The position numbers were made by a program, and so were the translations under genes. Of a stretch of 64,000 nucleotides of DNA, positions 14,160 to 57,919 are shown piece after piece. The first letter of the stretch is position 1, and every line of letters begins with the position of its first letter. This DNA is from an uncultured Planctomycetaceae bacterium (lineage in GTDB: Bacteria; Planctomycetota; Planctomycetia; Isosphaerales; Isosphaeraceae): positions 4,320,001 through 4,384,000 of the forward strand of contig CAWIAD010000002.1 of assembly GCA_963833985.1 (NCBI GenBank). Direction: 5' to 3'. Below the pieces are notes generated by a model. It ran no database searches and was not told the DNA's origin. It saw only the letters and a program-made list of their open reading frames with translations.

Positions 14160-14208
14160 AAATGCTCTCCGTCAGGATGGAAAGGGGCCAGCGGCGCGTG
14201 CCTGGGGC

Positions 14209-15924: not shown

Positions 15925-16291
15925 GCCTGTTCGTCCCGGTCTGGTCTGTCGCTGGAACCGAACCCTCCGCGCAGGGACCAAGCCGTTTCCCGCGCGGGGT
16001 TCGCTGCGTGCCGGTTTGTTGTGAGTGCAAGAAATTCAGAAAACGGACGGCGGAATCCAGAACGAACCCCGCCCTGACGGAGAATCAACCCGGAACAGGA
16101 CCGAGGTCGCGTCCCGCCGAAGCCAGCTCGAAGGCCCGATGCGGCCGGCCCGGCCGGGCCTCGCCCGCGGGGCAGGCCTGCCAGGCCCGGATGACGGCAT
16201 TCAATGATTCAATGACGATAATTTCTTAGACATCCTTACATTCGAATGACGGATCAGCGGGAGCACCGTGACAGCGGGCCGCGCGGGGGGC

Positions 16292-17413: not shown

Positions 17414-17735
17414 AGACCTCCCACGGAGAGATGATTCCAGCCCACGCCCGCCGACTCGTGCCGATCATCCGGGGGTTGACTTTGTCCTGGAAACCAGGTG
17501 TCCACCGTATTCCAGAGCCTCGCGTTGGAGTTACGGAATGAGCTGTGCGGCTCACCTCACCCCCATTATCGGGCCCCCGAGTGATCAGATCAAGCTGATG
17601 GCGGTCCACAACTTCGGCGCACTTCACCCGTTCCAAACCAGAGCGGACCGGTGCGGCCTTCCTGGTCCGCCCTTTCCCGGCCGGGGGGGTTGGCACCCAC
17701 ACCGGCCGGTCATGGCCATACATGGAACTCCCGTC

Positions 17736-19473
17736 TCACTTCTTCGCGGTCAGCAGCCCCTCGCTGATCATGTCGTGCTGGGTGATCCGCAAGACCTCGT
17801 CAAGCGTCGTCTGGCCCTTGATCGCCTTCACGATCCCGTCCTCGAACAATGTGCCGCATCCCCTGCTTGCGAGCCACTCTACGAATAGACTGGGTGGACT
17901 CCCCCTTGAACGTCATCTCGCGCACCTGCGTGGTCAGGGTCATCAGCTCGAAGATGCCCATGCGGCCCCGATAGCCCTTCTTGTTGCAGTTGTTGCACCC
18001 CTTGCCCTTCATGAAGTTGGCCTTCTTGGCCAGCTCCGGCCGCAACCCCAAACTTGCCAGAATATGTGCCGGGGGCTCGTACCGCACCTTGCACTTGGGG
18101 CAAACTTTACGTACCAACCGTTGAGCCATGATCGCAAGCACCGAGCTGGCGACCAGGAATGGCTGGATCCCGATATCCACCAGACGTGTAATGGCACTGG
18201 GCGCATCGTTCGTGTGAAGCGTACTGAAAACCAGGTGTCCCGTCAGTGAGGCCTGGATTGCGGTCTCAGCCGTCTCCAGATCCCGGATTTCGCCGACCAG
18301 GAGGATGTTCGGGTTCTGCCGCAGCATGGCCCGGATGATCCGCGCGAAGGTCATGCCAATCTTCGCCTTCACCTCACATTGGTTCACACCTGGAAGATAG
18401 TACTCGACCGGGTCCTCGGCCGTGATGATCTTCACGTCCGGGCGATTCAGCTCGTTGAGCGCGGCGTACAGCGTGGTCGTCTTGCCCGAGCCGGTCGGCC
18501 CCGTCACCAGCAAGATCCCGTTCGGCCGCTTGACCATGGTCTTGAACCGTGCGAAATCATCGTCGGCGAACCCCAGGTCCTGGAGGCCCACCTTGATGTT
18601 CTCACGGTCCAGGATCCGCATCACCACCGACTGCCCATGCGTGGTTGGTAGAATGCTGACACGCAGGTCGATATCCTTGCCGGCGACCAAGATCTTGATC
18701 CGCCCGTCCTGCGGCCGGCGTTTCTCGGCAATATCGATCGAGCCCATGATTTTCAGGCGGCTGACGATGGCACCGAGCAGGCGGCGGGGTGCCGAGTCAC
18801 GCTCCATGAGCACGCCGTCGATGCGGTAACGGATCCGCACGCGGTCGGCGAAAGGCTCGATATGAATGTCGGAGGCGCGCATGGTGACCGCTTCCTGGAT
18901 GATCAGGTGCACCAGCTTGATGACCGGTGCGTCGCCCTCTTCCAGGGTGTTGGTCGTCGCGGATTTGCCGGTCGCACCGCCGTCCTCGGAGAAATCGATG
19001 GCCGTGTCGGTGAATTCCTGGAGCATCGAGTCGACCGATTCGGTCTCGCCACTGCTGGCCCCATAGTATTTATTGATCGCCTCGACGATGGCCTCCTTGG
19101 GCGCGAGCGCGACCTCGATCTCGCGATTGAGCACGAACCGCAGCTTCTCGATGGTCTCGAAGCCGAGCGGGTCGTGCATGATCACCTTGATCGAGCCGTT
19201 CCCCTGTGCCAGGGGCATGACGATATTCTCGCGGGCCAACGACTCGGGAACCAGCTCGATGACCGAGGCCGGGATCTCGATCTCGCGGAGCTCGACAAAC
19301 GGCAGCCCGTGCTGCTCGGCCTTGGCCTTCATGATGTCGTCGGCCTCGGCATATCCCAGCTTCACCAGGGAATCCTCGACCGATCCGCCCGCGCGCTGGG
19401 CTTCCTTGAGTTGATCGGGCCCGATGACGCCCCGCCGGATCAAGATGTCCGACCAGTCACGAGTCTTTGCCAT
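17736..19473 (-). CDS. pilB: PilB/GspE family extension ATPase (copy 1); C-terminal frameshift near 17853
   Basis: ASDIHIEP, GPTGSGKTT, TAEDPVEY, GEIRD, LTGHLVFSTLHTND. The canonical tail GMRTLFEDGIVKAIKGQTTLDEVLRIT lies in a shifted frame ending at the TGA at 17736. Confidence 0.92.
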
Positions 19474-19964
19474 GGGTGATGAGCTCCAGGGAGGAATATC
19501 GAGCCCGGACCGGCGCAGCGCAGTGGCCACGACCGCTCGCTCGGTCCCCTTGACCGCGTTTGCAAATAGGTGACCCCGCCCGCGCGCTCACCGAGCGCGA
19601 GAATCTGGCATAGCGTCAGGTACGGCTGCACGATTCCTGCTGTGACTACAAGGCGACCGACACGGTCCAACCAGACTGCGGGCATCCGACGGGAATGAAA
19701 AATCGATGATGACTCCTAAGCTTACCAAGCCGTTGGACTTTGAGCAAGCGAATACGAGGGAATTCGCGATCCCGGAAGTCTCCCGCAGGCAGCCTGGCGC
19801 GTGATCGCAGCAACGAGGTGCGCCGTCATCATCGACCTATCCCGGTGGCCGTTCCGGTGCAACGGCCGCGTCGGGAAGTTCCAGCCGCTTCTCAGCCGGC
19901 GCGCAATCCACTAAACTCGACTTCCAGGGTCTGCTCGCACGCGTCTCGACCGAGGAAAGCCGCC

Positions 19965-34098: not shown

Positions 34099-35658
34099 TT
34101 ATCCGCTCGATGGCGTTCGCTGCGAGGGCATTTCTTTCGACTCTTCGAGTACGAGGAGTTCGAGCTCTCTCAGCTCGCCGGGAGTCACATGGCGGAAGTT
34201 ACCCGAGAGGATGCCGAAGACGCTGCGGAACGGAGCGCCGATGTGCAGCCCGGTTGCGTCGATGGTGAACTCACGGATGTCCTTGTTGTGAAACGATCCG
34301 CGCATCTTGAGCACGCCGAGCCCGCGCCGCATCTGGCCCAGCTTCTCGACGTAACGAAGCAGGATGATGGTGTCGGTGATTGTGGAGATATGGGTCTCGG
34401 TGATGGAAGCTCCGCCCAGGATGGACGATGTCGTCGCGGTGTAGAGGCCCGGGATCTCGCGGTGCTTGATGAACGAGGTGAGCGCGATCACGAACTCGCG
34501 GAAGCTCTTCTCGGTGGCCACCCGCTCCAGGGCCGAGAGGCTGTCGATGGCCACGCGGTGCGGGTTGAAGAGCTCGATCTCCTTCTTGATGCGGATCAGG
34601 TGGTCCTCGATGGCGGCCGCCTCCGGGTACTCGCAAAGCACGCGAAAGAGCCCGCGCTGCTCCATGTCCTCGAAATCGACGCCCCAGCCATGGGCGTTGC
34701 GGAAGAGCTGCTCGCGGCTTTCCTCGAATGCGAAGAGCAGCGAGCGCTGGCCCGACTGCACGCCGGCGGCCAGGAACTCGGTAGTGAGCAGGGTCTTGCC
34801 GGTTCCCGTCGGTCCGGAGACCAGGATCACCGAATCGCGGAAGAAGCCGCCCCCGCAGAGGGAGTCCAGCTCGGTGTTGCCCGTGCTCAGCCTGGCCTCG
34901 GACGACTTCTGCTGGAGCTCGATCGCCGAGAGCGGAATCACCACGATTCCCTCGTTGGGCACGATCGTCAGCGGCCATTCACCCTTCTGGTGCGTGGCGC
35001 CTCGAAACTTGAGGATCTCCACCGTGCGCCGCCTCACCTCGTCCTGAAGCACATTGCGGAAGATGATCACGTTGTCGGAGACGAACTCCTCGATGCCGAA
35101 CCGCGAGACCGGACCGTACTCATCGAGGCGCTCCGCGGTGATGATCGATGTCACGCCCATCCTTTTCAGCGCCATGGTGATGCGGAAGAGCTCCTGCCGC
35201 ACCGTGGCGTGGTCGTCAAATTGCGAGAAAATCCCGCCCAGCGAGTCGAGCGAGACGCGCCGGGCGTGGACTCTGCGGACAGCGTGGTCGATCCGGGCAA
35301 TCAGCGCGTCGAGATCGAAGGCGCCGGAGATCTGCACGCGCTCGCCGGGTGTCGGCGAGGCGTTCACGAAGGCCCAGCGCCCTTCGGCCTCCCATCGCGT
35401 GATGTCCCAGCCGAACCCCTTCACGTTGCGGACGATGTCCTCGGGCAGTTCTTCGAACGTGACGAAGACGCCATTGTCATCGGCCTGCTCGATGCCCGCC
35501 GCCAGGAACTGGACGGCAAAGACGGTCTTGGCACTTCCCGACGTACCGGAAAGCAAGGTGACCCGCCCCTGGGGCAACCCTCCATTGGCGATCAGGTCAA
35601 AGCCGGTGATCTCGGTCCGCATCTTGGGAACCGAGAGAGGGGGATCGATCGTTCTCAA
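34099..35658 (-). CDS. kaiC: Circadian clock protein KaiC (double domain, Ser-Thr phosphosites)
   Basis: CI GTSGSAKT and FEE; CII GPTGTGKT and FEESREQLFRNA; HISTITDTIILLRYVE carries the ST pair; KMRGSFHNKDIREF. Confidence 0.95.
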   Translation of the reverse strand: MRTIDPPLSVPKMRTEITGFDLIANGGLPQGRVTLLSGTSGSAKTVFAVQFLAAGIEQADDNGVFVTFEELPEDIVRNVKGFGWDITRWEAEGRWAFVNASPTPGERVQISGAFDLDALIARIDHAVRRVHARRVSLDSLGGIFSQFDDHATVRQELFRITMALKRMGVTSIITAERLDEYGPVSRFGIEEFVSDNVIIFRNVLQDEVRRRTVEILKFRGATHQKGEWPLTIVPNEGIVVIPLSAIELQQKSSEARLSTGNTELDSLCGGGFFRDSVILVSGPTGTGKTLLTTEFLAAGVQSGQRSLLFAFEESREQLFRNAHGWGVDFEDMEQRGLFRVLCEYPEAAAIEDHLIRIKKEIELFNPHRVAIDSLSALERVATEKSFREFVIALTSFIKHREIPGLYTATTSSILGGASITETHISTITDTIILLRYVEKLGQMRRGLGVLKMRGSFHNKDIREFTIDATGLHIGAPFRSVFGILSGNFRHVTPGELRELELLVLEESKEMPSQRTPSSG

Positions 35659-42606: not shown

Positions 42607-44124
42607 ATGACAGACCTGGTGCCGATTCTTGCTGGAACCACCGTGGCGACGGGTATCGCCGGTCTCGACGACATTCTCAAGGGCGGCCTCACCGCCAACC
42701 GGCTTTATCTTGTGGAGGGTAATCCCGGCTCCGGCAAGACGACGCTGGCGATCCAGTACCTCCTCACTGGAGTCGCACGCGGAGAGAAGGCGCTCTATGT
42801 GACGCTCTCCGAGACGCGCGAAGAGCTTGAATCGGTGGCGGCCTCGCACGGCTGGTCGCTCGAGGGAATCGAGATCGTGGAACTCGTGCCCTCGGAGATC
42901 GATCTCGAGCCGGAAAACCAGTACACGATGTTCAAACCGGCCGACCTGGAGCTGGGCGCAACCACGAAGCGCATCCTCTCCCAGGTGGATCGTGTCAAGC
43001 CGTCACGGATGGTTGTCGACTCGCTTTCAGAGATGCGGCTGCTGGCGCAAAGCCCCTTGCGTTACCGCCGGCAAGTGCTTGCGTTCAAGCAGTATTTCAC
43101 GGGCTGCCGATGTACCGTGCTGTTCCTGGATGATCTCACGTCCGAGGCCTCCGACCTTCAGCTTCAAAGCATCGCCCATGGCGTTCTGAGCCTGGAGCAA
43201 CTCTCGCCGGAGTACGGGGCGGAAAGGCGCAGGCTTCGGGTCATCAAGCTGCGTGGCAGCTCATTTCGTGGCGGATACCATGACTTCATCATCAGCCGGG
43301 GCGGCCTGAGCGTCTTTCCCAGGCTGGTCGCCGCCGACCATGAACACGTTAACCAGTCGATCGACCAGCTTCCCAGCGGGATCCCGGAGCTCGACCAGTT
43401 GCTCGGCGGCGGAATCGAGCACGGGACCAGCATGCTCTTGCTCGGTCCGGCCGGATGCGGCAAGTCGTCGATGGCACTTCAGTTTGCCGTGTCGGCGGCA
43501 TCGCGCGGCGAGCGGGCCGCGATGTTCATCTTCGATGAGCGGCTGGAGACGCTCCAGGCCAGGGCGGCCGGACTCGGAATGCCCTTGCAGAAGCACCTGA
43601 AAACAGGTGCCATCCGGATCCAGTCGGTCGACCCTGGCGAGCTCTCGCCCGGCGAGTTCGCCATGAATGTGCGGCAGGCCGCGGAAGTCGACAGGGATGG
43701 TGTGCGCACCCGGGTGGTCGTGATCGACAGCCTCAACGCCTACATCAACGCCATGCCCGAGGAGCGGTTTCTGGAGATCCAGCTTCACGAGCTGCTCACC
43801 TACCTGGGCCACGAGGGCGTGATCACGCTCATCATTGCCGCGCAGCACGGCATCGTGGGCGAGATGCGTAGCGTCGTCGATACATCGTACCTGGCCGATT
43901 CGGTGATCATGCTGCGTTACTTCGAGGCGTTTGGAGCGGTCCGGCAGGCCGTCTCCGTACTCAAGAAAAGGAGCGGCCCACACGAGCGGGGCATTCGCGA
44001 GCTGACAATGGAGAGCGGTGGACTTCATGTCGGCAGACCGCTCACGGAATTCCAGGGAGTGCTCAGTGGGAAGCCAGTCTTCCTCGGTTCCGACACGTCG
44101 CTCTTGAGGCCGTTCAATGAGTGA
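42607..44124 (+). CDS. KaiC-like double-domain ATPase (non-canonical, Ser-Tyr at the phosphosites)
   Basis: GNPGSGKT and GPAGCGKS Walker A motifs; [29 protein letters not shown]. Confidence 0.88.
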
Positions 44125-46115
44125 TCCGCACTCCGGGATGGCCTGCCAGGATGAAAGAGTGCTGCTCTTGCTGCCCACGCTCCGTGACCAGCAGGTCACT
44201 CGGGGCATCCTGGACGCGGCAGGCATCGCTTCATGCCCATGCTCTGGCATGGACGAGCTGTGCCAGGAAGCCGCGCGCGGAGCCGGAGCAGCCATCGTCA
44301 CTGCGGAGTCCATACTCTGGGGCGGCTTCACGCCCCTCACCATCTTTCTGAGCAGCCAGCCTCCCTGGTCCGACATGCCTTTGATCGTCCTCACGGCTAC
44401 CGCCGACGAGTCCTCGGAACGGATCAATCGCCTGCTCAGCGCCGGCCACATGACCCTGGTGAAGCGCCCCGTCGATGTTTCCGCGCTGGTGACGACCGTG
44501 CAGAGCGCCATACGCGACCGGCGGCGGCAATACGAGGTGCGCCGGCTCATCGCCGAGCACGAGAGGCAGGCAGCCGAGATTCGCGACAGCGAGGAGCGTT
44601 TCCGCACGCTCGCCGATAGCGTGCAGCAGCTCTTCTGGACCACCAGGGCCGATGGACAGTGCGATTACCTGAGCCGGCAATGGGTCGAGTACACGGGTAT
44701 TTCCGAAGCCGAGCAACTGGGGCTGCAATGGCTGGAGCTGGTGATTCACCCGGACGATCAGCAGCGTGCGCTGGCCTGCTGGGAGCGGGCCGTCGCCGGA
44801 GAGGATCGCTACGACCTGGAGTACCGCATGCGCCGATTTGACGGCGTATACCGCTGGTTCAAGACGCGGGGCACACCGCTTCGCGACGAGCAGGGCAAGA
44901 TCAGCCGATGGTTCGGCACCTGCACCGATATCGACGATCAGAAGCAGGCTCAGGAGGCGCTTCGCGACGCCGATCGCAAGAAGGACGAATTCCTGGCGAT
45001 GCTGGCGCATGAACTACGAAACCCGCTGGCGGCCATTGGCAGTGCCGCCTTGCTTCTGGGCTCAAGTGATCCACGGGCCCATACGCCGTGGGCCAAGGAG
45101 GTCATCGACCGCCAGGTGACGCAGCTGGGACGGCTCATCGACGACCTGCTGGACGTCTCGCGAATCACCCAGGGAAAGATCGAGCCTCCGCAAGGAAGTC
45201 GTCGAGGTCTCTCGCGTCCTGACCTATGCCATCGAGTCGGTGCGTCCGCTCATCGAACGGTGCCATCACAGGCTGGAGATCGCCTGCGGCCCGGGGCCTC
45301 TGCGCGTGGAAGCCGACCCGACCCGGCTCGAGCAAATCCTGGTCAACCTGCTGAGCAATGCCGCAAAGTACACCTCGCCCGGGGGACGCATCGTGGTCAG
45401 TACAGTCCACGACGGCTCCCAGGTGCTCATCCGCGTGGCCGACAACGGCATCGGCATCCCGCCGGAAAAGCTGCCCTCGATGTTTGAGCTCTTCACCCAG
45501 GGCGATCGTTCACTGGCACGCACCGAGGGCGGCCTGGGTATCGGGCTCACACTGGTCAAGCGGCTCACGGAGTTCCACGGCGGATCGGTCACGGCCAGAA
45601 GCGATGGCAAAGGCCTCGGGTCGGAGTTCGTTGTCAGATTCCCCTCGGCGGCCCAGTCCGGTCCGGAAGAGCGAGAACCCGCAGCCTTACCGCCCGCCTG
45701 GACCAATCAACCCAAGCACATCCTGGTCGTCGACGACCAGCCGGATGCGGCCTGGGCCTTGAGCAAGCTGCTCGAACGGCTGGGCCACGAGGTCCAGGTG
45801 GCTCACGACGGCCCGGAAGCGCTGACGCTGGCGAATCGGCAAACGCCCGATTGCATCCTTCTGGATATTGGCCTCCCTGGAATTGACGGCTACGATGTGG
45901 CCTGGGAACTGCGAAAAAAAGACGACTTCAAGAAAACCGTCATCATCGCCATCTCCGGCTACGGACAGGAAGAAGACCGCCGGAAGTCGCTCGCCGCCGG
46001 CTTCGATCATCACCTGGTCAAGCCCGTCGATCATGAAGAATTGCTCTCCCTGGTCGGCCGCGCCGGTCTCGACCGCCCCGATCGTGACAGGCGAGAGGCC
46101 GCGGCTCACTTCTGA
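44117..46115 (+). CDS. Pseudo-receiver-PAS-HisKA-HATPase-REC hybrid kinase; frameshift near 45185
   Basis: Overlaps the kaiC-like stop; [14 protein letters not shown]-terminal domain, [15 protein letters not shown]. An extra C at GKIE-L joins ORFs 44117-45487 and 45240-46115. Confidence 0.88.
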
Positions 46116-46351
46116 AACATGATCCTGACTGCTGCCGTCATTCCCACCGCCCGGGTGTCCCGCCTGGTGGCTCACTCCGCCTGAGATATCCGGGAGACCG
46201 CGCACGCCTGCTGCCCCGCACCCGACCCATTTCTCGGCTCACAAGAATCTGACCGCTCTGCCGAATCCTTGACCTAGTGTTGAGTCGGAACGCCTCCATC
46301 AATCGCGCTGTCCTGCGTGCACGATGAAGGCACGTGGTCGGGGCTCGGGTC

Positions 46352-46699
46352 ATGAGCACGGACGAGAGACCAGCGGATCTGCTCGTCGAGGCGATCGGAG
46401 AATTCCGCCTGGAACTCATGCAGTGGATTGATTTTCAGTTGAGTCTGCTCTCCCAGCGGGAAGCCCGGCCTGGGGACGCCGGGGTGGCGGCCGGAGTTGA
46501 CGGCAGCTCCACTCACCGGCACGAGGCCCAGGCCATACCCATGGCGGAGGCGGACGTGCCATTTGCTCCGGCCAGCCCGGCACCGCACGAGGTTTCCGAG
46601 GCTGCAACGCAGGTTGACCCCAGGCTGCGGCTCGACGCCCTGGCCCGAAGGCTGGGAGAGCGAATCCGCCACAGCGAGGAAACACGCAAGGGACCCTGA
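46352..46699 (+). CDS. Small hypothetical protein
   Basis: Helical ends (EAIGEFRLELMQWID; DPRLRLDALARRLGERIR) around a low-complexity linker. Confidence 0.55.
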   Translation: MSTDERPADLLVEAIGEFRLELMQWIDFQLSLLSQREARPGDAGVAAGVDGSSTHRHEAQAIPMAEADVPFAPASPAPHEVSEAATQVDPRLRLDALARRLGERIRHSEETRKGP

Positions 46700-46902: not shown

Positions 46903-47424
46903 ATGGCCGATGACGAGTCGTTTTGTTTATTTCACTGTGAAGGGCAGGCGTTCGCGGTTGCCGTCGCCAGCGTGGCCGAGATCGCCGAGGTGGACGCCCT
47001 GGTCCGCATCAGCCTCTGTCCTCCGCAGATCGCCGGGCTCTGCCCTTATCATCGGCAGGTCGTGCCCGTGGTGAGCTTCGCGCACGCCATCGCACAGGAG
47101 ACGGTCCCCGACGCCGAGATCCGCCCTGCCGCCGGCCCGTCCCGTGTCGTTGTGCTGATCCTGGATACCAACCAGGGGCTCTGGGGGATCATGATCGATC
47201 GCAAGGGGGTGAGCATCAGCTCCCGGAGACCGGAGCGGACCGAGCCCCGAGAACGAAGCGACGGAGTGGTGACGGCGGGGCACATCGAACACCAGGGGGT
47301 CGTCTACAGCCTGCTCGATGCCGAGCACACCTGGCACGGACTGAGAAACGCGGTGGCCGGCTGGTACGCCTTCCTGAATGAGTCCACCGCGGCCCGGCGC
47401 GTCGGCGCCCAGGTTGCGCTTTGA
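46903..47424 (+). CDS. cheW: CheW family coupling protein
   Basis: FCLFHCEGQAFAVAVASVAEI...PPQIAGLCPYHRQVVPVV...WGIMID. Confidence 0.8.
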   Translation: MADDESFCLFHCEGQAFAVAVASVAEIAEVDALVRISLCPPQIAGLCPYHRQVVPVVSFAHAIAQETVPDAEIRPAAGPSRVVVLILDTNQGLWGIMIDRKGVSISSRRPERTEPRERSDGVVTAGHIEHQGVVYSLLDAEHTWHGLRNAVAGWYAFLNESTAARRVGAQVAL

Positions 47425-47504: not shown

Positions 47505-48885
47505 ATGCCGTTGCAAGCTGGGGCGATGGTGCTGGGAGCGATCCTGGGTTTACTGGGCGGGGGCGCGACGATGGCCGCGCTGCTGCTGCTGAGCCTCTCC
47601 GGCAAGATACGCGGTTGGCATCCTGCCCGCGGCGCTGGCCGGGGCTAGCGCGGCCTGGCTGGTCTGCCGCCACGCGCTGGACCGGGCCGCCGACGGCCTG
47701 GAGATGTTGACGAGCGACGAGCACGACAGTGCCGGAACGATGGCTTCACCGCCCGGGATCGGACACGCGGTCCTGGACGGCGAGCTGGCCCGGCTGCACG
47801 AGCGCCTCCAGCAGGCAAGCCGGCTCCAGTACGAGCTGGGGAAGGCGGAGCATACGGCGCGGGTCTTTTGCGCGTCGCTGAATGGATCGGGCTCGCCGGC
47901 CGGTAAGGAAATCAGCATGGGCGACGTCGGGGCGAAGCTGCCGGGCCTACTCGACCGGCTGCGGCAGACGGCGATTGCCATTCATCAGGACGCCGCATCG
48001 CTGGGCGAGGTGAACGAGCATGTCGCCTCGGGAGCGGCCGACCAGTCTGACGCCGTGGGCCGCACCGCGTCGGCGGTCGAGGCGCTCTCGGAGAAGATCG
48101 ATCGCATCTCCACCAGCGCCGAGGAAGCCGCTCAGGCCTGCGAGCGCGCCCGCGACGAGGCGCGCCGCGGGCTCGAGCAGGTGCACAGCGTGATCGAGGG
48201 GATGGACCGCCTGCTTGCCCAGATCGAGACCAACGGCCGCAAGACCAAGCGGCTCGAGGACCGGTCCAACGAGATCGGCGTCATCGTCGACCTGATCCGC
48301 GACATCTCCAGCCGCACCGACATGCTGGCCCTCAACGCCACCATCGAATCCGTCCGCGCCGGCGAGCACGGCCGCGGCTTCGCCGTCGTTGCCGAGGAGA
48401 TCCGCAAGCTCGCCGAACGGACAGCCACCGCCACGCGTGAGATTGGCACCATCGTCGAGGCCATCGAGGTGGATACGCACGAGACGATCCGCGCCCTCGG
48501 CCAGGAGCAGACCGAGATGCAGCGCGAGAGTCAACGCGTGCGTGAGACCGGCTCGGCGCTCGAGCGCATCAGCCAGGTTGCCGAGCACTCCGCACGCCTG
48601 GTCGAAGGGATCTCGCGCTCCACCAACGATCAGGTCGTCGCCACTCAGGACCTGGTGCGGGCCATGCAGCGGATCTCCGAGGTGACCAACCAGACGCTGG
48701 AGCGCACCACGGTCTCGCGGACGGCCCTGCAAGCGCTGGTCAGGTCTTTTGAACCCTGGCAGAAGCTGGCTGCCGGCGGGCTCGCGGGCGAGGACGCCAG
48801 GCCCGATGAGCCAGCGCACGGCGTGCCGCGATTGCACGATTCGCGGAGGGCCCGCAAGCTGGCCGGGGAAGAGGTGGCCCGATGA
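47505..48885 (+). CDS. Methyl-accepting chemotaxis protein with two adjacent TM helices; frameshift near 47605
   Basis: Hairpin tip [40 protein letters not shown] 47505 after GAGGGA. TM1 ([13 protein letters not shown]...) and TM2 ([20 protein letters not shown]) are in adjacent frames. Confidence 0.85.
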
Positions 48886-51800
48886 CGCGAGCGGCTGAGA
48901 ACCGCCCGGCCGAGCCCGTCTCCCTCTCCAGCCGTCTCGAAGAGGCTCTCGGGCCGATTCGGACAGGCACTCGAGGGCACCTTGCCGCTCTGCCAGCTCG
49001 AGGAGGTTCGCACCGCGATCGATGCCTTGCGGAGCGAGGTCGAGAGCCGCGGCCTGCATGGGCGTTCCACCGCGCTGGGGCGGATCAGCGCGCTCACCGA
49101 GGTCTGGGAATGCCTGGCGGGCGACCCACAGAACCATCCGGACGAGGTTGGCTTTTTCTGCGCCAAGGCCCTCAGCCAGCTTGCCCGCGGGGAAGATCCG
49201 GCGGACAACGGGCACGACGGAATCGTGGAATGGATCCTCGAGCATTCCTCATCCGCCTGGGGCGAATACCTGCAACTCATCGAGAGCAAGCCGCAGGCTG
49301 GCAGCGATCCCGACGCCGCAGGCGACGGATTCGAGCTTCCGCCGGAGCCCATTGACGATGTCCTCGCGGACGCCGACACGGGCCAGGACCTGCTGATCGA
49401 CGCACAATCCTTGCTGAGGCTCTTCCAGGGGGGCACGCCGGACCCTGGCGCTCGGGCCGCGACCGCGGTTCCGGAGCCGCCGGCCAGGGTGACACCTCCG
49501 CCTCCGCACTTCGGTGTCGTCCCTCCGCCTCGGCCCGCCGCGCCCATGCCGGCGCGAGCGAAAGCTCCGGAACGCCCGCCGAAGGAGCCTGCCGCATTCC
49601 AGGTTCCTCCCCTGCCCTCCGAGATCAACCTCGACGAGGAGATCCGCGAAGCCTTCCTGGCCGACACGTCGGACCTGCTGGAACGGATCGAGCCGCGGGT
49701 GCTGGGGCTCGCCCACGAATCAGACCCCGGGCCCTCACTCCGAGAGCTGGGACGCTGCTTTCACACGCTCAAGGGAGCCGCCGGCAGCGTGGGCCTGGGC
49801 GACCTGGCGGCCCTGGTGCACGCCCTGGAGGAACATCTGGAGGAGACCAGCGGACCGGCCTCGCCTGAGCTGATCGATGTGCTCCACCAGACGCTCGGCT
49901 ACCTCGACGGCGTCGTCGGCCTGCTCCGCAACCGCAACGCACGACCCGCCGGCCTGGGCCCCTCCATCGCCAGCGGCGATGCTGCGGGCGGCCGGACGCT
50001 GCCCCTCGAGCAGGCGGCCGTCATGTCCCCGGCCCAGGCCGTCACGACCGCCGGCCCCGATGCCCCGGACTTGCCACTCCAGGGCTCCTCCACCGAGGTG
50101 GCGGCCGCGGAGGGCACCTCGGCCTCTTCCGACGGGCCAATCCGCGTGCCGGCGTCGCGCTTCGATGACCTCATGGACATCGTCTCGGAGCTGATCGCCA
50201 GGCGCAGGCTCTGGAGCGACCAGGCCGGGTCGCTCAAGTCGATGTCCCAGGTGGTTCGCAACTGCCGGGGGCGGATGCTGGCGATCCTCGAGCGGCTGCA
50301 CGAGACCGGCCTGGGACGGGAAAACCGCACGCTCGACACCGCTTCCGGGGTCGACCTGCCCGGACAGATGCGCCGGCTTGGTGAGCTGGCCGACGACCTG
50401 TCGGTGCTGGCCGAGACGGCCCAGGCGGCGGCCCTGCCCCTGGCCGATCATGGCGATGCGCTGGGCCGGCTCACGCTGCAACTGTGGGACGAGCTCCAGC
50501 GGATCCGCATCGTTCCCATTCGCGGCCTCTTCCAGCGGCTGGCGCGCGTGGCCCATGACGCGGCCAGGGTGGAGGGGCGGCACGTCGAGGTGGTGCTCGT
50601 CGGCGAGGAGACCGGGCTCGACCGCGCCGTCCTGGACAAGGCCTTTGAGCCGCTCCTGCACGTGGTTCGCAACGCCGTGGGCCACGGCATTGAAACGGCC
50701 GCCGATCGGCAGGCCGCGGGCAAGCCCGCAGCCGGACGGATCACCCTCGAGGCCCGCAGGGAAGGCAACACGCTGGTCATCTCGGTTCAGGACGACGGCC
50801 GGGGACTGAACCACGAGGCCATCGCCGCCAAGGCGCGGAGGCTCGGGCTGCTGCGCCCCGATGAGAACCCCAGCATCGAACGGCTCAACCACCTCATCTT
50901 CCATTCCGGCTTCTCCACCAAGCAGGAAGCCAACGCCATCTCGGGCCGCGGCGTGGGCATGGACGTCGTGGCGCGCGAGGTGGGGACTCTCAAGGGAACC
51001 ATCGAGCTCCAGACCGAGCAGGGCCGGGGAACGCGGCTGACGATCCGCCTGCCGGCGCGGCTGGCATTGGAGACGGCCATGATCGTCCGGGTCGACGGCC
51101 AGGCCTTCGCGCTGCCGGTCGCCCAGATCGAGTTCGCGCAGCCGCTGGAAGGGGCGCCGTCAAGCGCCGCGGGAACACCGACCAGTCCACCGGAGATCCA
51201 GCAGGTGACGTTCCGGGACCAGCGCATAGCCGTGATCCATGCACGCAAAATGCTGGCGCCGGGCAGTACGTCGCCACCGCCGTGGCCTAAGCTTCTCGTG
51301 GTGCGATCGGCGAGCGGCCTGCTTGGCCTGGCCGTCGACAGCATCGAGGGCACCGAGGACCTGGTGATCAAGTCGCTGGGAGCGCTCCTGGCGGGTCACC
51401 CGGTGATCTCGGGAACCAGTCTCTCGCTCACAGGCGAGGTGATCACGATTCTCAATTCCTCCGGCCTGGAACGCTGGTCCAACGGTGGAGAGCCCCAGCA
51501 ACCGGCGGAATTCTCGGGGTCCGCCCCCGCGCTGAAGCTGAAGCAGCGTGCTGGCGAGAAGGTGCTTGTGGTCGACGATTCCATCAGCGTCCGGCGGGTG
51601 ATTGTCAGACAGCTCCGCCGCCTGGGTCTGGAAGTCGAGGAGGCCTCGGACGGGCTGGAGGCGCTGGGACGGCTGCGGTCGCGCTCTTATCAGCTGGTGG
51701 TGACCGACCTGGAGATGCCGCGCCTCGACGGCTTCGAGCTGCTGGCCGAACTGAAACGGCATCCCCCGCTGGCGGCGATACCGGTGATCGCCGCAAGCAC

Positions 51801-51927
51801 GAAGCGAGACGAGGAAACCCAGAAGCGGGTGCTTGCCCTGGGGGCCAGGGCGTTTCTGGCCAAGCCGGTAGACCCCTCTGCCCTGGCACAGGCCGTTGCA
51901 CCGCTCCTTACTCCTGCGGGCGGCTGA
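48882..51927 (+). CDS. cheA: CheA-REC hybrid kinase (Hpt, dimerisation, HATPase, CheW, REC); frameshift near 48960
   Basis: FHTLKGAA Hpt, [21 protein letters not shown]...[10 protein letters not shown], CheW domain, [18 protein letters not shown] overlap with the MCP stop. Confidence 0.92.
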
Positions 51928-51955: not shown

Positions 51956-53497
51956 ATGGAAAACCCGCTGATCCTCGTGATCGACGACAGCCAGACCATC
52001 CGCAAGATGGTCGAGTGCCACCTCTCTCAGGCCGGCTACCGGGTGTCCCTGGCGCCTGACGCCGAGCAGGGTTTGCAGATGGCGCGCACGCTGCAACCCG
52101 ACCTGATTCTCCTGGACCACCAGCTTCCCGGAACCACCGGAGACGAGGTGTGCCGCAAGCTGCTGGCCGAAGAGCTGACCTGCCGCGTGCCCGTGGTCAT
52201 CAGCTCGGCGATGCGGAACCGGGCCTTCGCCCAGTACACCGAGTTCCCCAACGTCGTCGACCAGATCCCCAAGCCGTTCACTCCCGAGCTGCTCAAGAGC
52301 GGCGTGTCCAATGCGCTCCAGACAGGGGCGATGGTCGTGCAGGCCCAGCGGACCGGCTGCGCCATGCCCGAGGCCGTGGGCGAGGCCCATGAGGCCACGC
52401 TCGAGGGGAGCACCGGCGCATTCCCCCTGCCCATGGTGCTGGCGTTTCTGAACAACCTCCAGCAGAGCGGCCGGCTCACCCTGGAAACCGGCAACGATCG
52501 GATTCGCTTCGCACTCTCCGGGGGCAGGGTGCAGGCCGTCTACTCGCCCACGATCGCCGCGGATCGTCTCGAGGGGAGCCTGCCGGATGACCTGGTGGAC
52601 CTGGGGCCGCTCCTGGGCCTGACTCTGGGGGAACAGCAAGACCCATCGATGAGCGGCCTGGTGAAGATGCTGGAGCGCAGCCTTGCCGACCCGCGCCGGC
52701 TCCGCGCCTTGTTACGGTTCCAGGCCGCCTGGCTGACCTATTCCGGTCAGGCCGGCGAGCCCGGCAAGTTCCACTTCGAGCCGGTGAACGTGCTCCCTCC
52801 CATGTTCCAGGCCCTGCCGCTCCAGCTCAGCGCCGCTGCCCTGCTGGTGGACGGCACGCGCTACTCGGGCGCCCGGTTCGACGCCGAGGAGTGCGGGCAA
52901 ATGGTCTTCGCGCGGCAGGCGGCGCGAGGAGGCAACTCCGACCGCGCTGGGCTCTCCAATGCCGAGATCAAGGTCTACACGCTCCTGGATGGCAGCCGTT
53001 CGTTGAAGGATGTTTGCCGCGAGGCCGGGCTCTCCCTGGCGGACGTGGCCGCCACCGCCCACGGCCTGGAACTGGCCGGCATGCTCGAGCGGCGGAATCC
53101 GTCGTCCACCGAGTCCATCCTGGCGCTCGACGACGACCCCGAGACCGTCCGCCTGATCCAGCGCGTGCTCGGCCCCGAAGGAACCAACCATCAGCTCAAG
53201 GTCGTGCGCGATCGCGTGGCCGCGCAGCTCCTCTTCCGCCGCCAGACCTTCAACCTCGTCATCATGGCGATCGACCGGCCAGAGCAGGAGGCCTTTTTCC
53301 AGGCTTGCAAGCGTCAGCATGGCTCGGGATGCCACTACGTCGGCATCTCCAGCATCGAGGATGAGAACGAGCTGTCGCGGCTGGACGCGATGGGGCTCGA
53401 CGGCGTGCTCCATCGGCCGGTGAGCGAGGGCGACCTGCTCGCCACGGTGAAGCATCTCTTGAAAATGGCTCGAGCCACCATGGCCGGCGTCGCGTGA
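51956..53497 (+). CDS. Response regulator: REC + DUF4388/PATAN-like + winged HTH + degenerate REC
   Basis: VIDDS...LILLDHQLPG...KPF; LEGSTGAFPLPMVLAFL...SGRLTL...FALSGGRVQA; LLDGSRSLKDVCREAGLS; C-terminal LALDDD...VLHRPV. Confidence 0.8.
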   Translation: MENPLILVIDDSQTIRKMVECHLSQAGYRVSLAPDAEQGLQMARTLQPDLILLDHQLPGTTGDEVCRKLLAEELTCRVPVVISSAMRNRAFAQYTEFPNVVDQIPKPFTPELLKSGVSNALQTGAMVVQAQRTGCAMPEAVGEAHEATLEGSTGAFPLPMVLAFLNNLQQSGRLTLETGNDRIRFALSGGRVQAVYSPTIAADRLEGSLPDDLVDLGPLLGLTLGEQQDPSMSGLVKMLERSLADPRRLRALLRFQAAWLTYSGQAGEPGKFHFEPVNVLPPMFQALPLQLSAAALLVDGTRYSGARFDAEECGQMVFARQAARGGNSDRAGLSNAEIKVYTLLDGSRSLKDVCREAGLSLADVAATAHGLELAGMLERRNPSSTESILALDDDPETVRLIQRVLGPEGTNHQLKVVRDRVAAQLLFRRQTFNLVIMAIDRPEQEAFFQACKRQHGSGCHYVGISSIEDENELSRLDAMGLDGVLHRPVSEGDLLATVKHLLKMARATMAGVA

Positions 53498-53549
53498 GCG
53501 GACGGCCGGAAGGACAATGCGCGCGGTGAACGCGCGCGGAGTGACCAGG

Positions 53550-54546
53550 ATGACTGATGGAAGAAGCGAACCCGACTACGGCCAGGAGACTGGCAGCGAG
53601 GGGGACCTCGACTACCTGGAGACGATCGCCCTGCTCCAGGACGAGATCGCGCGCCTGGAATCCGAGCTGCTTGCCCAGCAGGATCTCGCGGCTCGTTCCT
53701 CTTTGGGCGGCCATTCCCGGACCGCGGCCGAAGCGGACGGCGTGGCGGCAGACCGGCATCACCTGGAGCAAATGGCCGCGGAACTGGCTGCGCGGGAGGA
53801 GACGATCAACCTGCTGCTCGAACAGCTTCGCCTGGTCGAGGAAGCCGAGTCGGCCAGCCGGCTGGAATGGGAGCAGCTCTCGGAGTGGGTCTCCGAGGTC
53901 GAGGAGCGGCTTGAGCGGCAGGCAGAGACAGCCGCCGGACAATCCGCTCAGGAGCTGGAAACGCAGCGCCGCGCGCTTGAGGAGTCTCGCGCACGCCTGG
54001 GCGTGGAACGGCAGGCCTGGACGACGCAGCGCCGCGACCTGGAAAACGAGATCGCTCGGCTGCAATCCCTGCTGGCACAGACGGCGAAGGAAGGTGCCGG
54101 CAGCGGCGACCGGGCCGGGATGGAACTCCTCGAATCCGAGAACCAGCGCCTCATGAAGCAGTGCCAGGAGTTGCAAAAGGCGGCCTTTTCCGAGATGGAG
54201 TCGCTGCGCCAGGAGGTCGAGGCGGCGCGGCAAGGCAAGGAAGAGGCCCGCAAGACCTGCGAACAGGTCCAGGACGAACGCGACCGCGAACGCCGGGAAT
54301 ACGAGATCGCGATTACCTCGATCCGCGCAGTCGTCTCGGGCGGCCCTCGTCGCGCACGAGAGCGAACTGGCCGTCGTCCGGCCCGTCGCGGCTGCCGAGC
54401 CGGCCGGCGCGATCGAGGCTGATCTGCGGATCCGCGAGTTCCGGCAGCATCTCAAGGAGATTCACAACCACGAGGCGGAGGCGCGGAACCGCAACCGGCT
54501 GGGCGCACGGCTATCACGCCTCTGGACCAGGACGGCACCACGATGA
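53550..54546 (+). CDS. Coiled-coil protein; frameshift near 54335
   Basis: E/Q/R/L-rich heptads; the shifted frame gives ADLRIREFRQHLKEIH...RLGARLSRLWTRTAPR and stops in an ATGA overlap with the next gene. Confidence 0.7.
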
Positions 54547-55143
54547 ATATGAGCCCCTCCCACTCGAACGAGCGAACCATTGAGCTGCGTGCCAGACCGC
54601 GATCCGCGAAGGCCGCGCTGCCCTCAGCGACCGCTGTCTCGCCTGCCGACGCGGTCCTGAAAGTCAATCTCGAGGAGCTGCGCCGCTACGTCCTTCGCCG
54701 GCTCGATTCGATCGAGGCGCTGGCCAGAGGCTGCTCCGGAGTGCCCTCCGCCGAGCTGGCGCGGTCCGAGCAGATGCTCAAGCAGACGCTCGAGGAGCTG
54801 GAGCGGGAACGTAACCGCGCACGCATCGACGCGGCCGGCCCGGACGCGGCAGGGAAGCAGATGCTGATGCAGCTCGAGAACGACCGGCAGTTGCTCACGG
54901 ACGCCTGGGAACGGCTGGAACAGGAACGCATTGACGCGCTCACGCAGGGAACGACCGCCCGGCCGGCCCACGCTGACCACGCGCCTCATCCGGTCGACGC
55001 TCAGGTCGTGCACGGCCAGCCTGCGCAGCGCCGGCATGGGCGCGGAGAACGCCAACCCCGTCGCGGAGTCCATCCTTCGTCAGTTTCAAACGCTCTGTAG
55101 CGATGTCCGCCGCACGACGGACGCTCGCCTCTCACCGCATTGA
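54543..55143 (+). CDS. Coiled-coil protein; probable frameshift between 54960 and 55025
   Basis: LEELRRYVLRRLDSIE...LENDRQLLTDAWERLEQERI; the shifted frame ends NPVAESILRQFQTLCSDVRR. Confidence 0.65.
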
Positions 55144-55157
55144 TAGGGCGCCACCCC

Positions 55158-56263
55158 ATGTCCGTGAACCTTTCCCTGGAGCAGAAACGCAAAGGTGAGC
55201 AGGACGCCCCGCGGCACGACCGGCCCACCCCGGTCGCCTCGGCCTTACCACGCCGTCACCGCGGTCTGGCCGGACGCTTCCTGGCATGGATCGCACCCGG
55301 CAAGCCAGCCCGCGCCGGATCCTCCAGAACCGCCAGTGACGGCGACCGGAACGCCGCCGCCGAGCGATCCGCCGAGGAGCGCGGCAATCCCGACCTGGGA
55401 ATGGCCCGCAAGCTCATCGCCCAGGACCGCTACGGATTCGTGCTGCTGCGCGAAGCCATGGGACAGATCGACGACAGTGACGTCCGCACCGCCTGGGGAG
55501 CACTGAATACGCAGATGGCCCTGGTGCCGGCCGGCAACGTGCCCCTCATGCTCTGCGACGGCAGCCTGGCGGCCGTTGAACTGGAAGGCTTCTACCTCGA
55601 CCGCTGTGCGGTCACCAACCGTCAGTTCCAGCGGTTCGTGACCTCGGGCGCTTATGACGACCTGCAAATCTGGCCGACGGAAGTCTGGCCCAGCGTGGCC
55701 CGGTTCACCGATCTTTCGGGCCGGCCAGGCCCGCGCGACTGGGAGCACGGCAAGTTCCCCGCCGGAAAAGCCGAACATCCCGTCGTGGGAGTCTGCTGGT
55801 ACGAGGCCGTGGCATATTCCCGCTGGGTCGGCAAGCGCCTGCCCACGGCTGCCGAGTGGCAGAAGGCCGGCGGCTGGCCCGAGCAGCTCAGCGGAGGTAC
55901 CTGCAACCGCTATCCCTGGGGCAACATGTATGAGCCGTGCGCACCAACCTCTCCTCGTCCGGGCTTGGGCATACCGTGCCCGTTCGCGAGTATCCCGCGG
56001 GCGCCACGCCCAACGGCATTTACCAGATGACCGGCAACGTCTGGGAATGGCTCGACGACCCGCTGGAAACCATTCCATGCAGGCCCGGCGAGTATTTCCA
56101 GGCGTGGAAGCCGTTGCGCCGGATCATCGGCGGCGCATTCAATACCTACTTCCCCAACGAGGCAACCTGCCAGTTCGTCACCGGCCAGGCCGAGCTCGAT
56201 CGCCGTGAGAACATCGGCTTCCGGTGCGCCTTGAGCCTCCACCAGCTTCAGCCCTTGCCCTGA
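55158..56263 (+). CDS. Formylglycine-generating enzyme (FGE/SUMF1) fold protein; frameshift near 55940
   Basis: MALVPAG, FYLDRCAVTNRQF, HPVVGVCWYEA, RLPTAAEW, RYPWG, NGIYQMTGNVWEW, NIGFRC. Confidence 0.88.
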
Positions 56264-56341: not shown

Positions 56342-57244
56342 ATGTCGAACGCACCGTTGCTCATGGAGTACAACCGGCAGGCGAGCGACTTCGCGTGCCC
56401 CCTGTGCGGGGGCCACACTTACGAGGGTGAGCCCTGCGGCACTTGCTTCGTCCCCTTCAAGGTCATCGAATCGATCCGCTCGCGCCCGCACCCTCCCCGG
56501 TTCGTGGTGGTCCTGGGACCGACGGGCGTGGGCAAGACTGTCTACCTGGGCATGCTGCTGGACCAGCTCTCCCGCGGCGCCAGCGGACTCCAGGGTCTGT
56601 CGCGCAGCCCGTACTCGCTGACCTTGCACCGCAACTTGATTCTGGCGCTGGAGCGCCAGAGGTTTCCCGAGAAGACTCCCGTCGAGACGGACCGCTGGAA
56701 CTGGCTGCACTGCGAGATCATGACTGCGCGGGGTAAGAACAAGGGAGCGGCCGATATCGTCACGCCCGACGTCGCCGGCGAGGCCGTCAGCGCGGAGATG
56801 GAGAATCCGGGTACGCACAAGACCATTCGCGCGTTGATCAGCCGGTGCTCGGGTATGGTTGTCCTGGTGGATCTGGTGGAGGTCGTGGCCGACGGACGGG
56901 GCCAGGAGCTGTTCGCGATGCAGCTCATCAGCTACCTGGATGCTCTGCGTCCGGGCCGCAAGAAAGCCCGCAAGCTGGAGATCCCGGTCGCGGTCGTCTT
57001 CACCAAGGCCGACCTCTTCGAGGAGTGGATCAGCGATCCCGAGGCATTCGCGCGGGGGAACGTCTCCAGCCTGCATGCCCAGTGCCAGGCCCGGCTGGAG
57101 CACTACGCGTTTTATTGCTCCGGCGTGGCCGGCTCGTCGGCCAAGCTGGTGAGCGACTCGGGTCAGGAGTACCTGGTCCCCCTGCGCGTCGAGCCCAGAG
57201 GAATCATCGAGCCGTTCGCGTGGATGGTCGACAAGCTGGGCTAA
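56342..57244 (+). CDS. TRAFAC-class P-loop GTPase (double-GTPase-system-like) with N-terminal Zn ribbon
   Basis: CPLC-x9-CGTC; G1 GPTGVGKT, G2 FPEKT, G3 DVAGE, G4 FTKAD; C-terminal PRGIIEPFAWM. Confidence 0.85.
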   Translation: MSNAPLLMEYNRQASDFACPLCGGHTYEGEPCGTCFVPFKVIESIRSRPHPPRFVVVLGPTGVGKTVYLGMLLDQLSRGASGLQGLSRSPYSLTLHRNLILALERQRFPEKTPVETDRWNWLHCEIMTARGKNKGAADIVTPDVAGEAVSAEMENPGTHKTIRALISRCSGMVVLVDLVEVVADGRGQELFAMQLISYLDALRPGRKKARKLEIPVAVVFTKADLFEEWISDPEAFARGNVSSLHAQCQARLEHYAFYCSGVAGSSAKLVSDSGQEYLVPLRVEPRGIIEPFAWMVDKLG

Positions 57245-57256
57245 AGGAATGCGCAC

Positions 57257-57919
57257 GTGTGGGCGGAGCAGGCGATCTTCACATCTCTTCCCCGCAACGG
57301 CCGCGGGGGATACCACCTGGTCTCGCGGTCCAGGGGGATCAGCGGCCAGGAGGCTCAGGCCATCGCGCGCTGGTCGCCATCGCACGGGTCGCTCCAGCAA
57401 GACCAGCATAACCGCGTGAGCGTCAATTTCCACGGCCTTCCCGGCGGGCGGTTCGCGCTCTCGAGGAGCTGCGAGGGACCTCCGGAATACAGCGGCCGGG
57501 GCGGCCGCCAGCTTTACACGCACGTGCTGGTGATCGACCTGGAAAGCCTTCAGACCGTCGGCGGCCAGCCATTCGTGATCTACCGCAACGCCCTGGCGCT
57601 CGGCCACCTGTTCTACCAGGTGAGCCCTGCCGAGCTGCTGGAACCCATCGAGCTGCCGGCATTTCACGGCGAGGTCGACACGGCCGCCTGGCTCACCCGC
57701 GCTCGCAAGCTTGGGTTCCCTCCGCTGGAGCCGATCCGCGAGCGGTTGCTCGGCGGGCGGCCCGTGCGGTTGCCTTACGCCGGCGACCGCGCGGCCCTGG
57801 CCGAATGCCTCGTGGGCTCGCTGGGACCCGGAGCCGTCGCGAGGATCAGCTTCGCCACCAGCCTCCAGCCCTCGTCTGATCGGCCCTTCGTGCTCTCACT
57901 CGTCGACAGCCGGAAGTGA
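57257..57919 (+). CDS. GAP1-N2-like (GTPase-associated protein 1 N-terminal) domain protein
   Basis: EQAIFTS...GGYHLVSRSRGI...EYSGRGGRQLYTHVLV pattern recognised from memory; directly downstream of the GTPase. Confidence 0.65.
   Translation: MWAEQAIFTSLPRNGRGGYHLVSRSRGISGQEAQAIARWSPSHGSLQQDQHNRVSVNFHGLPGGRFALSRSCEGPPEYSGRGGRQLYTHVLVIDLESLQTVGGQPFVIYRNALALGHLFYQVSPAELLEPIELPAFHGEVDTAAWLTRARKLGFPPLEPIRERLLGGRPVRLPYAGDRAALAECLVGSLGPGAVARISFATSLQPSSDRPFVLSLVDSRK

Follow-up and report, generated by a model that had tools for sequence, protein, structure and literature searches.

What does a Ras-like GTPase do when its gene stands, together with that of a short GAP1-type protein, at the end of a planctomycete operon? 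The question arises from a locus of an uncultured Planctomycetaceae bacterium (GTDB family Isosphaeraceae; genome of 10.2 Mb, 96% complete) in a stretch of 64,000 nucleotides, positions 4,320,001 to 4,384,000 of contig CAWIAD010000002.1 in assembly GCA_963833985.1, here called the window. A preliminary description, made without database searches, had taken the two genes for a stand-alone, minimal version of the double-GTPase/GAP1 conflict systems, possibly repurposed for signalling, with the partner acting as a GTPase-activating protein (GAP) or a guanine nucleotide exchange factor (GEF). The pair does not stand alone: it closes a ten-gene same-strand operon containing chemosensory genes. We give about an even chance to the reading that GAP1 controls the GTPase as a GAP and that the two act as a switch below a chemosensory pathway of the pilus type, in analogy to Frz-MglA/MglB. 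Both protein families and the planctomycete FGS subtype are already published: Kaur, Burroughs, Iyer and Aravind (2020; PMC7159879) define the families and mention planctomycete FGS-effector systems. Papers are cited by accession.

The GTPase and its GAP1 partner

Profile searches against the DO-GTPase and GAP1-N2 families, which had been suggested as a check, matched both above the curated Pfam cut-offs. The GTPase scored 45.6 bits for DO-GTPase2 and 44.8 bits for DO-GTPase1 (cut-off 27), values that do not separate the two subtypes, and the partner scored 61.7 bits for GAP1-N2 (PF20013, cut-off 24) over residues 3-119. NCBIfam held no family matching either protein. The G1, G3 and G4 motifs and the CxxC-x9-CxxC ribbon noted earlier are all present in 56342-57244, while the G2 threonine, T112, had been overlooked. 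The Pfam matches rule out chance, together with the invariance of the four cysteines, G59, G64, K65, T66, T112, D143, G146, K222 and D224 in 75 of 75 aligned GTPases. The ribbon cysteines were kept in all 101 GTPases linked to GAP1 and in all 13 without it. Position 147, directly after DxxG, was Glu in 92 and Asp in 9 of the 101 linked proteins; this residue and the TRAFAC GTPase fold agree with the DO-GTPase definition of Kaur et al., where the equation of E147 with the authors' Walker B-region Glu is our own reading.

Structure prediction, likewise suggested earlier, gave a Ras-like GTPase (predicted local distance difference test score, pLDDT, 86). Its tied best matches in VIA were RagD (Z 15.8, root-mean-square deviation (rmsd) 2.8, 173 residues aligned), an Arf6 fusion (Z 15.4) and LokiRag (Z 15.2). 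A PDB sequence search with the GTPase profile returned P-loop-level matches only (best E 0.037). A second GTPase that would make the system double was considered and rejected: the sole other DO-GTPase2 match in the genome is an unrelated 833-aa protein 1.5 Mb distant (L123:7757-10255; G000:C2 near 2883646) with no adjoining GAP1-N2 match, and the genome holds one GAP1-N2 gene. The single GTPase had been regarded as unusual, which it is not, because two copies occur in only 38% of systems (Kaur et al., 2020).

The 220-aa partner was found where it had been described, at 57257-57919, starting 12 nt past the GTPase stop. Its identity as a GAP1-N2-like protein stood for the first domain; the protein is larger than GAP1-N2 and has a second alpha/beta domain, likely GAP1-M. 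Atlas feature neighbours carry GAP1-N2 together with GAP1-M, and an ortholog gave a weak GAP1-M match over the second-domain region (E 3e-5, below cut-off). The effector tail is absent, as had been noticed, and so is a C domain; none of 40 loci linked to chemosensory (che) genes showed the helical domain with which long GAP1 orthologs end. In the GAP1 model (pLDDT 94), five strands and one helix follow each other as in longins, and the small alpha/beta domain comes after residue ~140. Foldseek ranked TagF of the type VI secretion system (T6SS) first (E 5e-4), then folliculin-complex chains, DENND1A/B and the Lst4 longin. VIA gave TagF Z 6.9, an Asgard longin 6.7, GATOR1 chains 5.7-6.5 and, over residues 1-220, DENND1A/1B 5.8-5.9 (rmsd 5.0-5.1, 182 aligned; DENND1A region 11-253). 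Nearly all of its top 40 rows were longin, DENN or roadblock structures, none at the tool's caution line of Z 8, and the neighbours included NPRL2, FLCN and SMCR8 complexes. A longin/DENN-like fold is consistent with these models (Z 5-7), at moderate confidence.

With FLCN, NPRL2, SMCR8 and the DENN GEFs, GAP1 shares a conserved Arg and, on its model, a probable longin-like fold at the N-terminus with an alpha/beta domain behind it, and the best structural matches of its client GTPase include Rag and Arf. It differs in the lack of sequence match, in Gly-Tyr instead of Gly-Pro, and in an operon without a second longin subunit. DENN GEFs are tripartite (uDENN-cDENN-dDENN), and GAP1 has no third part (dDENN). 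TagF matched over all 220 residues (rmsd 4.5, 182 aligned), but no T6SS genes were seen in the operon. TagF acts by inhibition through Fha and is not known to us for GTPase control or as a GAP. As a side observation, this match (PDB 9t0n, 6iz8) suggests that TagF may also be longin/DENN-like; a literature search on TagF with DENN found no paper.

Predicted complex and the candidate arginine finger

GTPase and GAP1 were folded together with GTP and Mg, alongside three controls. The pair scored 0.85, against 0.00 for the best control; this mark is reached by 116 of 157 solved pairs and by 2 of 215 mismatched pairs. Contacts agreed between runs to at least 95%, and the pLDDT of the partner was at least 91. 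GAP1 is predicted to dock against the P-loop and both switch regions, with contacts that include residues 60-62, 108-118 and 145-158 of the GTPase and 15-20, 30-38, 41-45, 75-83 and 206-209 of GAP1. Judged from these models, it is very probable that GAP1 binds the GTPase directly.

The GAP1 side of the predicted interface holds the invariant residues of the family, R81 and P41 in all 365 sequences, Y19 and E77 in 364, H43 in 361 and R209 in 360. R81 is predicted to contact K111 of the GTPase, and the loop before strand 2 (G18 in 363 and Y19 in 364 of 365), at the place of the eukaryotic GP motif, to contact residue 61 and E147. Arg-Gly-Gly at the place of R81 also occurs in two long GAP1-N2 proteins from other planctomycetes. 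The 13 GAP1-less GTPases kept 42% of the consensus residues in six interface columns, against 88% in 41 other conserved columns. K111 was present in 101 of 101 GAP1-linked versus 7 of 13 GAP1-less proteins, P113 in 98 versus 4, E115 in 100 versus 0 and D117 in 96 versus 1; the nucleotide motifs and cysteines are retained, but the contact surface is relaxed.

The catalytic finger of eukaryotic longin GAPs is an Arg of the longin domain (PMC8213707, PMC9473554, bioRxiv 2020.04.15.042515), supplied in this way by NPRL2, FLCN and SMCR8 (PMC8213707, PMC12290439), and the loop before strand 2 adjoins it (PMC12290439). Since Arg81 is invariant, a GAP is favoured over a GEF, and on balance we lean towards GAP1 being a GAP rather than a GEF or scaffold. 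The eukaryotic fingers, R164 of FLCN, R78 of NPRL2 and R147 of SMCR8, presumably occupy the strand 4-5 loop that also carries R81. To our knowledge, the trans arginine-finger longin design has so far been shown only for eukaryotic FLCN, NPRL2 and SMCR8, and GAP1 was named only for its adjacency to GTPases, with no tested function. The earlier suggestion of a GAP or GEF gains support from the probable longin/DENN-like fold, the predicted interface on P-loop and switches, and the invariant Arg81.

Alternatively, GAP1 may be a DENN-type exchange factor, or an allosteric GAP or scaffold, in which Arg81 is a binding residue and K111 of the GTPase provides the catalytic charge, as MglB positions Arg53 of MglA. 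All 220 residues align with DENND1A/1B and DENND10, most longins are GEFs (PMC12290439), and K111, invariant in the 101 linked GTPases, precedes the G2 Thr as R53 precedes T54 in MglA. An Arg without exception in 365 sequences nevertheless sits in the predicted interface, the loop before strand 2 touches the P-loop residue 61 and E147 in the GTP/Mg model, and NPRL2-type longins score as high as DENN proteins, and we regard this alternative as rather unlikely.

The operon

The operon runs from an open reading frame (ORF) of 121 aa through cheW, the gene for a methyl-accepting chemotaxis protein (MCP), a hybrid cheA, a REC-PATAN regulator gene, two coiled-coil genes (CC1 and CC2) and an FGE-fold gene to the GTPase and GAP1; a convergent ABC-2 permease gene lies downstream (Table 1). 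Compared with close relatives, the genes of MCP, CC1, CC2 and FGE each differ by indels of one or two bases. The two halves of FGE share a reading frame in 112 of 118 loci, and two of the six exceptions are the window itself; these indels are likely assembly errors, as judged from sequence comparison. A scan for promoters and terminators gave no promoter-like site and terminator-like sites at chance level.

Table 1. Features of the operon and of its last two genes, in positions of the window.
Feature	Position	Strand	Evidence
121-aa ORF, first in operon, no Pfam family	46334..46699	+	
CheW	46903..47424	+	PF01584 E 2e-12
MCP: short hydrophobic N-terminal hairpin, no periplasmic sensor domain; frameshift near 47614	47505..48885	+	PF00015 E 5e-38
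Hybrid CheA: Hpt, HATPase, CheW, REC	48982..51927	+	Pfam
Response regulator REC-PATAN(DUF4388)-wHTH-like-REC	51956..53497	+	PF00072 E 3e-25; PF14332 35.3 bits, cut-off 25
Coiled-coil CC1; tail frameshifted near 54325	53517..54422	+	
Coiled-coil CC2; tail frameshifted near 55033	54543..55143	+	
FGE-sulfatase-fold gene, split by one-base loss near 55936	55140..56263	+	PF03781 in both halves
DO-GTPase, 300 aa, Ras-like fold, one N-terminal Cys4 ribbon	56342..57244	+	PF19993/PF19975 above cut-off
CxxC-x9-CxxC ribbon (C19, C22, C32, C35); putative zinc site	56396..56446	+	sequence
G1/P-loop GPTGVGKT, residues 59-66	56516..56539	+	G59, G64, K65, T66 invariant
Switch I F108-D117: K111-T112 (G2), P113-x-E115-x-D117; predicted GAP1 contact	56663..56692	+	
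G3 DVAG, residues 143-146, then E147	56768..56782	+	E147 at Ras catalytic-Gln position by motif register
G4 TKAD, residues 221-224	57002..57013	+	K222, D224 invariant
Short GAP1, 220 aa, GTG start: longin-like GAP1-N2 (1-139) and alpha/beta domain (likely GAP1-M)	57257..57919	+	
Arg81, loop between strands 66-76 and 84-93; candidate arginine finger	57497..57499	+	365/365 sequences; predicted interface beside GTPase K111

The hydrophobic N-terminus of the MCP is found here and in most orthologs. The second REC domain of the regulator has no acceptor Asp, as seen by eye. Three scanned distant orthologs of CC1 have an N-terminal FHA domain and the CC1 of the window has none, while the C-terminal motif of CC2 is common to the coiled-coil gene that heads the cassette in loci without che genes (hhalign probability 93, motif aligned). 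Neither CheR nor CheB had a Pfam match in the window operon or among 41 ORFs from five other loci, and a CheY-like gene precedes cheW in two of the scanned orthologous loci.

Distribution and forms of the cassette

A scan of GTDB gave 322 relatives. The best 79 loci were kept, 78 labelled as planctomycetes and one (L020) as Solirubrobacterales, and 40 further loci were added, making 119 that hold the GTPase, with some genomes occurring twice. The survey of distribution covered 401 genomes of the class at a completeness of at least 90%. Kin are not independent, and all counts of loci and genomes are descriptive.

The FGE gene was present upstream of the GTPase in all 116 loci with room to see it, which does not fit a minimal version, and GAP1 was downstream in 103 of the 116. 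Among 96 loci with at least 6 kb upstream, 43 had the PATAN regulator and 53 a cassette without che genes; CheW, MCP and CheA were found together in 37 of 40 PATAN-regulator loci with at least 9.9 kb upstream. Of the 401 genomes, 76 had the GTPase, always as a single close copy, and 67 had GAP1; 62 had the two together, and the PATAN regulator occurred in 40. Within the family of the window GTPase, GAP1 and regulator co-occur in the identical 24 of 59 genomes; in two of these, G364 and G388, a break between CC2 and FGE separates the operon into two halves, both of them retained. The linkage of che genes to the cassette is kept in three families and down to protein identities of about 30-45%. 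In a quick tree, midpoint-rooted with no outgroup, che-linked GTPases were separated from the rest by one branch (SH-aLRT 100; 42 of 113 rows), and the regulator tree gave the same sister pairs as the GTPase tree. Regulators without a GTPase formed two groups nested among the GTPase-linked ones, which fits loss if the midpoint root is right. We consider that the GTPase is probably coupled functionally to CheA. Cultured carriers are Singulisphaera acidiphila, Aquisphaera insulae and Tautonia sp. JC769.

Three other forms were seen. In the first, mostly in records labelled Pirellulales, CC, FGE, GTPase and GAP1 are without che genes, often with a GAP1 of 390-610 aa and a hydrophobic FGE N-terminus; the latter occurred in 31 of 53 che-less but in 0 of 36 che-linked loci. 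The second is a cassette without GAP1-N2 (13 loci; 14 genomes), in which the C-terminal helical domain of long GAP1 persists as a small gene in 8 of 13. These ~120-aa genes, right after the GTPase in L085, L087, L091-L093, L095, L096 and L122, match only that domain; the longin part is lost there and switch I of the GTPase is relaxed. The third form, the che half without FGE, GTPase and GAP1, was found in 9 genomes, and as second copies in 2. Its operon (L130-L138) ends not in CC2-FGE-GTPase-GAP1 but in a conserved ~300-aa protein of unknown family, following CC1 (the regulator in L135), possibly an alternative output module. Each half occurs without the other, so the GTPase serves a purpose in the absence of CheA, and CheA in the absence of the GTPase. 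A further observation concerns other planctomycete GAP1-N2 loci (L127:5214-9736 and L128:9115-12865), where a DO-GTPase fused to a beta-helix (NosD-like) domain follows a long GAP1.

From these forms one could suppose that the CC2-FGE-GTPase-GAP1 cassette has an independent role in the planctomycete cell, for example in budding, in the stalk or in envelope polarity, and that the chemosensory genes are only co-regulated or an optional input. The single-copy cassettes without che genes, the che half alone in 9 genomes and the two split operons speak for it. It is harder to reconcile with the linkage in three families, with the identical presence pattern in the 59 family genomes and with the distribution of the hydrophobic FGE N-terminus, which looks as if the MCP supplied the anchor in che-linked loci. 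We judge a separate function of this kind unlikely.

Chemosensory type and possible output

Chemosensory systems of the type IV pilus (TFP) class are defined by a hybrid CheA-REC, PATAN or paired regulators, an operon without CheR and CheB, and pilus genes in the host. The locus has a hybrid CheA-REC, a PATAN regulator, an operon without CheR/CheB match and a host with pilus genes. With the cyanobacterial Tax/Pix (PatA-type regulators) and Pil-Chp systems it shares CheW, MCP, the hybrid CheA-REC, a PATAN regulator, the lack of CheR/CheB in the scanned loci, pilus genes and the lack of flagellin in the family; it differs in the REC-PATAN-REC order, the MCP without sensor domain and the GTPase cassette at the end. 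In Synechocystis, PilB1 and PilC are binding partners of PATAN domains (DUF4388; bioRxiv 2021.06.11.447907), and MglA genes occur occasionally near PATAN genes (PMC4316618).

No flagellin was found in the 60 genomes of the window's family, while PilM was found in all 60, and the genome itself has three PilT-family genes above cut-off. The best match of the MCP among plasmid-collection records (140 bits, the next 123) sits in the order regulator-regulator-gap-MCP-1506-aa hybrid. An order of regulator, regulator, gap, MCP and large hybrid is presumably that of Pil-Chp. The absence of flagellin, this hint of a Pil-type MCP and the PATAN-PilB/PilC binding therefore make a pilus or polarity output the most likely one, yet this is the weakest step of the argument, and we rate such an output as plausible at somewhat less than an even chance.

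A conserved linkage of the chemosensory operon to pilB-pilT-pilB-pilC did not hold, since the matching pilT was at least 136 kb off or on another contig in 10 genomes. Pilus genes were uninformative as a test of co-occurrence (PilM 60/60), and FliG_C was misleading as a flagellum marker, as 55 of 60 genomes had matches without any flagellin. These matches (G000:C2:5212353-5212652 and 54 of the 59 other family genomes) point to a FliG-like protein outside the flagellum. In the window, the pilB-pilT-pilB-pilC cluster lies at 12918-19530 (-), with pilin-like ORFs down to about 9749.

A close known parallel is Frz-RomR-MglA/MglB of Myxococcus, which likewise has chemosensory input, a Ras-like GTPase, a roadblock/longin-like regulator, a basic residue before the G2 Thr and a pilus-bearing host (PMC6785124, PMC4316618). 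Compared with MglA, the GTPase here is of another family, with a Cys4 ribbon, Lys at the place of the intrinsic Arg and Glu for Gln. The partner is a single chain of longin-like and alpha/beta domains where MglB is a roadblock dimer, and roadblock (PF03259) had no match in the genome at its stated completeness. The genes here share one operon; in Myxococcus, by contrast, mglA lies apart from the genes of its signalling partners (PMC4316618).

Comparison with the described conflict systems

The two proteins are members of the families of Kaur et al., and the system departs from the conflict type described there. It shares with the GAP1-N2 systems both families, GAP1 downstream, an N-terminal ribbon, Glu after DxxG and an adjoining FGS/FGE gene; it differs in having one ribbon, no GAP1-C or tail, a conserved FGE and an attached chemosensory operon. 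Where GAP1 of those authors has three domains, N, M and C, the 220 aa here comprise N and likely M, and where their effectors are highly variable, FGE identity follows GTPase identity.

It might still be a GAP1-N2 conflict system, anti-phage or leading to cell death, as Kaur et al. propose, with the FGE-fold protein as effector or sensor. Family membership, the FGS effectors of their planctomycete GAP1-N2 systems (PMC7159879) and the patchy distribution (76/401) would agree with this. Against it, FGE identity tracks GTPase identity in 17 comparisons (e.g. 67/76, 59/65 and 41/45%), the C-terminal segment of FGE is conserved class-wide, the gene order is fixed and no variable tail was found. The FNIII-repeat component of the described systems had no Pfam match among the 14 proteins scanned in the window or in five orthologous loci, where 41 of 71 ORFs were selected for the scan; PADLOC had no match for GTPase, GAP1 or FGE, and no GTPase relative was found in 72,556 plasmid records or in viral contigs. 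As to a mobile gene neighbourhood, the distribution is patchy, but the gene is single-copy and the trees are congruent. A conflict role appears very unlikely, and the earlier preference for signalling over conflict is supported by the chemosensory context and the conserved, not hypervariable, FGE gene.

Proposed pathway

We propose that a membrane-anchored MCP, CheW and the hybrid CheA would act on the REC-PATAN regulator by phosphorylation. With CC1, CC2 and the FGE-fold protein serving as scaffold and adaptor, this regulator may set where or when the GTPase is on. GAP1 is predicted to bind the GTP-bound GTPase over P-loop, switch I and switch II; Arg81 would act as the arginine finger, with E147 in the place of the catalytic Gln, and return the switch to GDP. 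The output might, more tentatively, be the polarity of type IV pilus activity, as for Frz with MglA/MglB in Myxococcus.

Several points weigh against this pathway or parts of it. The pilT cluster is 29 kb upstream of the operon in the window and not nearby in 10 other genomes, and pilus genes are present in genomes both with and without the system. No PATAN-regulator match was found in 45 of the 76 GTPase-bearing genomes, and 9 of the 40 regulator-bearing genomes have no GTPase, their operon closing in another gene. All fold matches of GAP1 are below Z 8 and the best is TagF of the T6SS, the GAP1 profile matched no PDB chain sequence at E 10, and GAP1 has Gly-Tyr where eukaryotic longin GAPs have a GP motif before strand 2 (PMC12290439). 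The passing score of the complex may reflect a likeness to solved GTPase-longin complexes, and its output consists of protein-protein contacts, by which Arg81 was placed, not by distance to the gamma-phosphate. The 13 GAP1-less GTPases need only two changes on the tree, perhaps of one origin, and are generally more divergent. K111 could possibly be an intrinsic finger like MglA Arg53, because K111-T112 parallels R53-T54 (PMC6785124).

A wider proposal, which we find doubtful as a whole, is that a chemosensory kinase of the pilus type and a Rag/Arf-like GTPase under its control form a bacterial pathway encoded by one operon, the GTPase being switched off by a longin-DENN GAP of a single chain that supplies an arginine finger in trans. 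GAP1 across bacteria, and perhaps TagF, would on this view be a prokaryotic branch of the longin-DENN regulators. If true, longin-type arginine-finger GAPs would not be confined to eukaryotes and Asgard archaea, and there would be a second, independent coupling of a chemosensory system to a small GTPase besides Frz-Mgl. The locus offers a pair of small proteins, both predicted to be soluble, and a predicted interface in which a single residue, Arg81, could decide the question of GAP activity. It is also a candidate for the control of surface behaviour in planctomycetes that lack flagella, and it has cultured carriers. A literature search, with subscription papers mostly outside its reach, found no report of chemosensory coupling, a GAP1 longin fold or an arginine finger, and Kaur et al. 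as the only description of these systems, two further papers naming DO-GTPases just in passing. The words 'chemotaxis', 'CheW', 'longin' and 'DENN' have 0 occurrences in the main text of that paper, whose Figure 1-source data 1, outside this check, may list these loci.

Other features of the window

Two KaiC-type genes lie upstream of the operon, one above the NCBIfam cut-off for KaiC at 34099-35658 (-) and a second KaiC-like ATPase gene at 42607-44124 (+). Each is followed by a gene for a PAS-type hybrid histidine kinase, the second of which (44117-46115) is split by a frameshift.

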